DNA from: a phage
DNA length: 64,000 bases
Assembly (NCBI GenBank): GCA_012474735.1
Contig: GCA_012474735.1_4085.1
Strand: one strand, 5' to 3'
Both the position numbers and the translations under genes were made by a program. Position 1 is the first letter of the stretch, and the number at the start of each line of letters is the position of its first letter. Below the pieces are notes generated by a model that was not told where the DNA came from, did not search any database, and saw only the letters and a list, made by a program, of their open reading frames with translations. This document shows positions 33,842-34,426 of the stretch, piece by piece.

Positions 33842-34426
33842 TTATCGTGTTATAGTTACGGCTTTTACATCACGCTTTTTATAGTACTGATTCCAGATAT
33901 TGCGGGTTAAACCGTAATCAAGTACTTTAATAAGTCCATTACGATCCTGGCCGATATTCTGTTTTCTGATATCTCTTATCGTTAGTGTTGATAATGTATC
34001 ATCGACGTGTTGTAGTGCATCAGCAAAGCGGTGCTGGCGTTCAATGGCATTACGTTTAATATTGTACTTTAATTCGTTGCACGCGTTAACGTGCTTCACA
34101 CTGCCTTTACTTGCAGTACTCAACCGATCCATAACGATAAACATATTATCAGGATCGCATAAATGCATATGCACCTTTGCAAAGTACTGTTTCAATTGAG
34201 GGCGGTCATAGTCTAAAAAATTCCATACCTTACATTCAGTTTCATTTTGTTCTACACCCGCATCACAATTGGCGACCTTAATCACTAACCGATCATTTAA
34301 AGCGAATACGATACGGGAAGAACCCGCCCCGATGATCTCCAGGCCAGCTAACCGACAAGCTGAAAGGATCTCTTTGTTGGTTTCCATTTCTGACAGTGTA
34401 CGGATGAATTTAGTATAATTACGCAT
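33842..34426 (-). CDS. putative Ser/Thr protein kinase-like protein
   Basis: start at MRNYTKF with RBS aaggagaacatgcaATG; Gly-rich loop GAGSSRIVF, Lys motif LVIKVA, catalytic-loop-like IRDIRKQNIG, DFG-like VLDYGL. Confidence 0.55.
   Translation of the reverse strand: MRNYTKFIRTLSEMETNKEILSACRLAGLEIIGAGSSRIVFALNDRLVIKVANCDAGVEQNETECKVWNFLDYDRPQLKQYFAKVHMHLCDPDNMFIVMDRLSTASKGSVKHVNACNELKYNIKRNAIERQHRFADALQHVDDTLSTLTIRDIRKQNIGQDRNGLIKVLDYGLTRNIWNQYYKKRDVKAVTITR

Follow-up and report, generated by a model that had tools for sequence, protein, structure and literature searches.

The stretch of DNA analysed here (the window), 64,000 nucleotides (nt) from phage contig GCA_012474735.1_4085.1, carries on its minus strand an open reading frame (ORF) at 33842..34426 that encodes a small protein-kinase-like protein, hereafter referred to as the mini-kinase. 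The gene was recognized by ORF calling, conservation, profile matches, a structural model and fold comparison. Its ATG start codon is preceded by a ribosome-binding site read in the sequence at 34427..34445 (minus strand; AAGGAG, 7 nt upstream), and the same Met is used as the start by all mini-kinase orthologues. A preliminary description of the locus, made from the sequence alone, had given the product as 195 amino acids; the ORF is real, but the stop codon had been counted and the actual product is 194 amino acids long. A longer reading from a TTG codon at 34483 (213 amino acids) was ruled out because all orthologues begin with MRNY, whose ATG has the ribosome-binding site in front of it. 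The source region was 95-98% identical to Escherichia coli jumbo phages of the genus Asteriusvirus, including slurp01, PBECO4, 121Q, G17, Sharanji and phAPEC6 (approximately 350 kb). The protein itself was 100% identical to gp500c of phAPEC6 and to its counterpart in phage UB, and WNN14351.1 is also an orthologue.

The four motifs quoted in the preliminary description, GAGSSRIVF (residues 33-41), VIKVA (48-52), IRDIRKQNIG (150-159) and VLDYGL (168-173), were all found in the kinase order that it stated. The features of subdomains I-III are present, namely the Gly-rich loop G33-x-G35-S-S-R38, in which Arg stands for the third Gly, the Lys K50, and the helix-C Glu E64. Those of subdomains VIb and VII are represented in part, by D152, N157 (N, H, S or Q across the family) and D170-Y/F-G172, but neither the His and Arg of the HRD motif nor the Lys at D+2 is conserved. 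G33 and D170 are separated by 137 residues, and both order and spacing are as in Hanks-type kinases. Among 12 relatives down to 40% identity, G33, G35, S36, R38, K50, E64, D152, G159, D170 and G172 were invariant and N157 was nearly so. An alignment of 198 related domain instances to a profile hidden Markov model (HMM) showed conservation of K50 (98%), E64 (96%), D152 (93%) and D170 (95%), as well as of R38 (95%), Q60 (94%), N61 (95%) and G172 (94%). The family signature derived from these domains was G-x-G-S-S-R ... V-[LI]-K-x-A-x-N-x-x-G-x-x-Q-N-x-x-E ... W-x-x-x-E ... D-x4-[HNSQ]-x-G ... D-[YF]-G-[LF]-[TS]. Further, position 174, a Thr two residues past the DYG motif, was Thr or Ser in 76% of the family. 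Because the catalytic residues are conserved, including those in every copy of the multi-copy proteins described below, this conservation argues for an active enzyme over a pseudokinase.

In scans of the single sequence against Pfam, NCBIfam and PADLOC, all kinase matches were below threshold. The protein matched the HMM of phrog_4301 ("unknown function") over residues 3-188 (E=7.9e-42), a large phage family to which no function has been assigned by curation. Among 51 relatives, five matched Pfam Pkinase at E<=0.01, the best at E=5.7e-6. When a profile of 12 sequences was compared with the PDB, nearly all matches were protein kinases, led by MKK4 and MKK7 (E=2-6e-4), and MKK7 was aligned from the G-loop to the DFG motif. 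The profile of 51 sequences gave MKK4 (E=3.6e-5), followed by BTK, STK3/4 and PLK4, again in register from the G-loop to DFG. Hanks-type kinases (PknB and MAP2Ks; PF00069) were thus the best sequence matches of the mini-kinase, with which they share the G-loop, the beta-3 Lys, the helix-C Glu, the catalytic Asp...Asn and a DFG-like DYG in the same order. SteC (8jbi) matched the family profile weakly, in the N-terminal lobe (N-lobe). That the protein is kinase-like is already on public record: it is described as a putative kinase in several GenBank entries and in one paper, and the labels given in some records are "putative protein kinase", "protein kinase", "serine/threonine-protein kinase PknA" or "PRP4".

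An initial AlphaFold model, built with 12 close homologues, had a predicted local distance difference test score (pLDDT) of 48.7 and was discarded; it was replaced by a run with an alignment of 51 sequences, which gave a pLDDT of 93.8 and a predicted template modelling score of 0.89. The latter model begins with a two-helix extension (residues 4-26), followed by the strands of the N-lobe (30-52), which include the G33-x-G35-S-S-R38 loop and K50, and by helix C (55-73), which carries G57, Q60, N61 and E64. The middle part contains a hinge strand (96-100) and helices 109-120 and 130-145, and the C-terminal part comprises the catalytic loop (D152...N157-x-G159), D170-Y-G172, a lone last helix (175-183) and a basic tail. 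A Foldseek search of the PDB returned MEK1, PknA/PknB, APH(2''), Lpg2603 and SAICAR synthase with E-values of about 2e-4 to 1e-3, those of MEK1, PknA/PknB, APH(2'') and Lpg2603 being about 2-5e-4, and structure comparison placed the protein in the protein-kinase-like (PKL) superfamily. The predicted fold is protein-kinase-like without any standout subfamily, PknB being no nearer to it than aminoglycoside kinases and SAICAR synthase are. A search of BFVD recovered orthologues from RaK2, from PBECO4, where the automatic name is "Protein kinase domain-containing protein", and from CBB, which has two copies. The more remote matches comprised many small kinase-like proteins of phages, with "Protein kinase" as the name of some entries. 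With this clear fold match and with every residue required for phosphotransfer present, the earlier assignment of the gene as protein-kinase-like was borne out.

The chain stops 22 residues past DYG, and lacks the activation segment with APE, helix F with its Asp, helices G-H-I and the subdomain XI Arg. The tail following D-x-G had a median length of 21 amino acids in 209 single-domain relatives and reached at least 100 amino acids in only four, so the loss of the C-terminal lobe (C-lobe) is family-wide and not peculiar to this gene. The designation as a minimal Hanks-type Ser/Thr kinase was accordingly not sustained: the Pfam score stays below the gathering threshold, the third Gly of the G-loop is replaced by Arg, in the catalytic loop neither the HRD His/Arg nor the D+2 Lys is conserved, and subdomains VIII-XI, everything past DFG, are missing. 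On these defining features the label "Hanks-type Ser/Thr" fails, while "kinase-fold phosphotransferase" passes. The kinase-fold interpretation is correct, whereas the Hanks-type Ser/Thr class and the role proposed in the preliminary description, reprogramming of host transcription or translation, are not established; as an annotation it is sound, unsurprising and already made informally by others.

The distribution of the family was examined by an exhaustive HMM search over 1.84 billion cluster representatives (50% identity), in which 2,065 relatives were found at E<=1e-3 and 248 at E<=1e-10, mostly on phage-like contigs. In a second database, 499 profile matches were obtained, many on contigs of 110-364 kb; none of them was named and none had a Pfam domain. 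The gene was detected by tblastn in 60 phage records, and those among the matches listed were all jumbo phages of about 320-390 kb with enterobacterial hosts. The Rak2-like jumbo phages that carry the family have Escherichia, Klebsiella, Salmonella, Yersinia, Erwinia, Pectobacterium and Xanthomonas as hosts. A profile search with the alignment of close relatives found one IMG/VR locus, and no member of this close subfamily in 185,579 bacterial and archaeal species genomes.

Tandem copies were a recurrent feature of the family. Two to four full-length copies were found in 25 of 160 relatives, one such protein being encoded on a 149-kb phage-like contig, and the metagenomic relatives with tandem copies or fusions were P0021, P0023, P0030, P0032, P0036, P0134 and P0111. 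A relative of 3,248 amino acids combines a PhageMin_Tail (tape-measure) domain with two mini-kinase copies. The presence of two copies inside a tape-measure-type protein suggests delivery with the virion, which would fit action at the very start of infection. As to the protein studied here, the identical gp500c was not mentioned in the main text of the phAPEC6 virion-proteome paper, and there was no sign of its packaging. Another relative, of 2,130 amino acids, contains two copies together with a 2H phosphoesterase and a PolyA_pol/CCA-adding module; this fusion could be the product of merged gene calls, and it may keep an RNA-directed role open.

Distant relatives were found in varied surroundings, close to genes for the gp23 capsid protein, for replication, for a baseplate component or for a CCA-adding enzyme. 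No neighbour was conserved across six distant loci, which points to a standalone enzyme. An 84-amino-acid ORF at 35031-35285 (minus strand), two genes upstream of the mini-kinase gene, belongs to phrog_1525, and the orthologues of this ORF in two related metagenomic phages matched Pfam ParE_like (PF24732) with E-values of about 1e-10. The ParE-like ORF lies directly upstream of the kinase gene in two related loci (L005 and L006) and four genes upstream in a third (L007). As a partner of the kinase it was rejected: the proximity in these three related jumbo phages reflects synteny, and the ORF was absent from four distant loci.

In the window, all genes around the mini-kinase gene are on the minus strand. 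An 80-amino-acid ORF (34458..34700, minus strand) lies upstream and is probably co-transcribed with it. The preliminary description had proposed an operon of the two genes, and this is plausible, since the gap between them is 31 nt and contains no strong signal, and a sigma-70-type promoter, TTGACA-17-TACTAT (34730..34758, minus strand), precedes the first gene of the unit. No family was assigned to the 80-amino-acid protein in profile scans, and its gene was not kept beside the kinase gene in more distant relatives.

On the downstream side, a cassette at 33738..33868 (minus strand) comprises an A-rich tract, a hairpin containing TTGACT, an extended -10 element and a leader box, CCCACAGGGTGCATAAGTGTATCTA. 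The hairpin (33803..33830) has a 12-bp stem and a UCCG loop, and the 71-nt fold had a free energy of -21.4 kcal/mol (z = -5.4). TTGACT is located within its 5' arm, and the extended -10 element, TGcTAATAT, follows 17 nt downstream. The previously described terminator that also carries a promoter -35 is thus a real element. It was not flagged by the terminator scan, its U-tract being imperfect, and it is labelled as a terminator by the annotators of G17. The cassette, approximately 95 nt long, is present in three copies, all on the minus strand (31470-31600, 33738-33868 and 36742-36872), with identical 28-nt hairpins, those of the other two copies being at 31535 and 36807. The conserved leader box is CCCACAGGGTGCATA(A/G)(G/A)TGTATCTA.

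The block from about 29.8 to 50 kb consists of spaced genes with consensus sigma-70-type promoters. The pattern TTGACA-N15-18-TAnAAT matched 14 times on the minus strand and never on the plus strand, and three promoters with 12/12 consensus positions were found within 4 kb. In the linear record of G17, the gene ranks twelfth when counted from the left end (4,249-4,833) and occurs again at 354,398-354,982; it lies 4.2 kb inside a direct terminal repeat of approximately 20.7 kb and is hence present at both ends. In the Muenster record, it is found under a "terminal repeat region" feature. With these promoters and this position, the block looks early, in agreement with the preliminary description. 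No transcriptome for the genus Asteriusvirus was found in the literature searched, so early transcription of the gene is inferred.

At about 29.4-30.1 kb the gene arrangement switches abruptly: the ORFs overlap tightly over 0.4-29.4 kb, and past this point they are spaced and have promoters of their own. By comparison with linear G17, this is the approximate map position of the physical genome end and of the start of the terminal repeat of about 20.7 kb. In addition, the palindrome AGTACT occurred 262 times in the whole window, against 21.6 expected from base composition, frequently in the form CAGTACTG. It was densest at 32-56 kb and absent from 16001-20000, and it was enriched both in ORFs (3.4/kb) and in non-coding DNA (8.0/kb). 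About 18 copies lie inside sigma-70-type promoters, with seven copies of TTGACAGTACT and 11 minus-strand copies of AGTACTnTATAAT, and in the promoter at 34730..34758 AGTACT overlaps both hexamers. Nothing relevant to this motif in jumbo phages was found in the literature.

From the conservation and the model, the gene very probably encodes an active phosphotransferase. We propose that it is a standalone enzyme of the PKL superfamily reduced to the ATP-binding and catalytic core, a reading that as a whole we consider to have about even chances. Mg-ATP would be bound beneath the G33-x-G35-S-S-R38 loop, with R38 in place of the third glycine. K50 would form a pair with the helix-C residue E64, the catalytic base would be D152, and the metals would be held by N157 and by D170 of the DYG motif. 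T174 is a candidate autophosphorylation switch. Because the activation segment, the P+1 loop and helices F-I are absent, substrates would not be selected through a canonical peptide groove, and an open cleft is expected. Judging from the promoters and the genome position, the gene would be transcribed by host RNA polymerase at a very early stage, from the terminal repeat and within a two-gene unit. By analogy with T7 gp0.7, the most likely role of the enzyme would be to phosphorylate Ser/Thr, and possibly Tyr, in numerous proteins of host and phage, showing little preference for sequence. Such broad phosphorylation would aid host takeover or the disarming of defences, for which the kinase domain of T7 gp0.7, of similarly short length, is the precedent. 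It is about equally probable that the protein is, or is not, a broad-specificity protein kinase for early host takeover or anti-defence.

The T7 gp0.7 kinase (T7K) is, like the putatively early mini-kinase, the product of an early phage gene. It is hyperpromiscuous and acts against many defence systems, and a T7 delta-SO mutant that retains just the kinase domain (residues 1-242) showed phosphorylation at 2 min similar to that of the wild type (PMC13645617). This short unit, with DPV at 213-215, ends about 25 residues past the DFG-equivalent, and is comparable to the mini-kinase of 194 amino acids with DYG at 170-172; the two differ in that motif, DYG in the mini-kinase and DPV in T7K (motif definition: PMC13645617). 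The shut-off/DNA-binding domain of T7K has no counterpart in the mini-kinase, which has no domain past residue 194. Their signatures also differ (GxGSSR and QNxxE in the mini-kinase, GxGxY...H and D.H..N in T7K), as do their PHROGs, the mini-kinase belonging to phrog_4301 only and T7K and Sharanji gp144 to phrog_2828/15752. The motif order of the two families was collinear in the profile-profile alignment. Membership of the T7K family was rejected, since single-sequence and profile-profile hhalign comparisons were collinear yet not significant. Canonical kinases are nearer in sequence to the mini-kinase family than to the T7K family, a profile of which matched nothing in the PDB below E=0.3. 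Two phages that we take to be of T7 type, Pantoea phage vB_PagP-SK1 and Yersinia phage fPS-53, have BFVD models named "Protein kinase", and these had template modelling (TM) scores of about 0.53-0.56 to the mini-kinase model. Sharanji gp144 (L003:21183-21857; outside the window) is a second short kinase of 224 amino acids, which belongs to the T7 gp0.7 family (phrog_15752) and whose homologues carry Pfam PF27024.

Very small kinases with a depleted C-lobe that act inside the target cell are also represented by the effectors OspG/NleH and SteC. OspG, with about 196 amino acids, has about the size of the mini-kinase; it was not among the fold and profile matches listed, and no direct comparison with OspG was made. 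SteC retains helix F, without which it does not bind its substrate, and its activation comes from phosphorylation by the host; OspG is described as being activated via a binding partner (10.1101/2025.03.01.640964). Neither an OspG-like partner nor a SteC-like activating site was evident for the mini-kinase. APH(2''), MTR kinase, ArkI and Rio have their own C-terminal helical subdomains that form the acceptor pocket, and the mini-kinase has none. Nothing relevant to C-lobe-less phage kinases was found in the literature.

Several observations weigh against a promiscuous protein kinase. The hhalign comparison with the T7K family gave a probability of 14.5% (E=0.002), which is not significant, and that with T7K alone gave 4%. 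The same phage group has a true T7K homologue, Sharanji gp144, which could do the promiscuous job. Ser, Thr and Tyr make up 16.4% of the early-block proteins compared with 19-27% in the other blocks, and were judged not to be low in absolute terms, the content being about 14% in a typical E. coli proteome. For the single sequence, Pfam PF00069 (Pkinase) scored 17.9 bits against a gathering threshold of 31.7 (E=0.0022). The family does not conserve the D+2 Lys of Ser/Thr kinases, and in distant members H, S or Q takes the place of N157. Moreover, a SteC construct ending soon after the DFG-equivalent was inactive and needs helix F (10.1101/2025.03.01.640964), so protein phosphorylation by a C-lobe-less kinase is not guaranteed. 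Given the lack of a conserved D+2 Lys, the absence of the part past DFG and a fold as near to aminoglycoside kinases as to PknB, the choice of a protein over RNA or a small molecule as the substrate is an inference.

An active kinase-fold enzyme could instead act on a non-protein acceptor, be it RNA (an RNA end or a tRNA) or a small molecule such as a nucleotide, with aminoglycoside, MTR and Kdo kinases and the archaeal tRNA kinase ArkI as models. APH(2'') and MTR kinase are among the best Foldseek matches, and the peptide-binding platform is wholly missing throughout the family, but the profiles match protein kinases nearly exclusively: no small-molecule kinase was among the 60 PDB sequence matches listed, from which APH(2''), MTR kinase, ArkI and Rio were all absent, and in the Pfam scan ABC1 was touched by only two of 51 members and APH by none of the 51. 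A link to RNA repair is offered by the relative with the 2H phosphoesterase and CCA-adding/poly(A)-polymerase module and by another relative located about 4 kb from a PolyA_pol gene; these are, however, two cases, the former possibly a merged gene call, and no metabolic or RNA-repair neighbour was conserved in the jumbo-phage loci. We regard a non-protein acceptor as unlikely, though deserving consideration beside a protein substrate.

Less likely again is a minimal kinase that is inactive alone and either depends on a partner, as reported for OspG, or works mainly as an ATP-dependent binder or inhibitor, that is, a functional pseudokinase. The inactivity of the SteC core without helix F and the partner activation of OspG (10.1101/2025.03.01.640964) would agree with this, and no canonical catalytic role attaches to the family-specific invariant residues R38, G57, Q60 and N61 of the G-loop and helix C, which could make up an interface for a partner. 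Against this reading, conservation of the complete catalytic set is 93-98%, tandem copies included, whereas a pseudokinase has usually lost some of it. No adjoining partner gene was conserved, and the T7 delta-SO kinase domain (1-242) phosphorylated at 2 min much as the wild type did (PMC13645617). Chance resemblance of motifs without a kinase fold has a negligible probability. The sub-threshold single-sequence Pfam matches and the low pLDDT of the shallow-alignment model would be in its favour, but it was refuted by kinase profile matches in register, by the confident 51-sequence model and by fold searches that returned kinase-like folds nearly exclusively, and the motifs are kept across about 2,000 relatives.

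The mini-kinase represents a second family of kinase-like phage proteins, unrelated in sequence to T7K, with a whole catalytic core and no substrate-binding lobe. More tentatively, and with considerable doubt, phrog_4301 might constitute a large phage class of C-lobe-less anti-defence kinases, made promiscuous by their open active site, that evolved independently of T7K and is deployed in several ways: as early terminal-repeat genes in two copies, as tandem arrays of two to four copies, and as copies embedded in ejected tape-measure proteins. In that case, jumbo phages of the Rak2 group would have two promiscuous kinases, unrelated to each other and with distinct roles. Several phages that carry the family are phage-therapy candidates, and about 2,000 metagenomic relatives have no curated annotation. 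Identification of the substrates would test whether C-lobe loss is a general route to promiscuity, explain the presence of two different kinases per phage, and give a name to a large family.

Other parts of the window contained arrays of paralogous genes. At 23626-29385 (minus strand), 25 consecutive ORFs of 70-96 amino acids overlap or abut and form one paralogue family linked by BLASTP, with 22-56% identity across all small-ORF pairs tested. Two more arrays of paralogous ORFs of about 60 amino acids, with eight and three members, were identified at 50780-54401 (minus strand), and tyrosine is unusually abundant (9.8%) in the proteins encoded by the block at 50.7-54.8 kb. Further, six paralogous genes of about 360-430 amino acids (21-39% identity) lie in a row on the plus strand at 54915-63422. 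Judged by position alone, their probable counterparts are Sharanji gp109-117, among which one protein carries the annotation of an RCC1-repeat protein.
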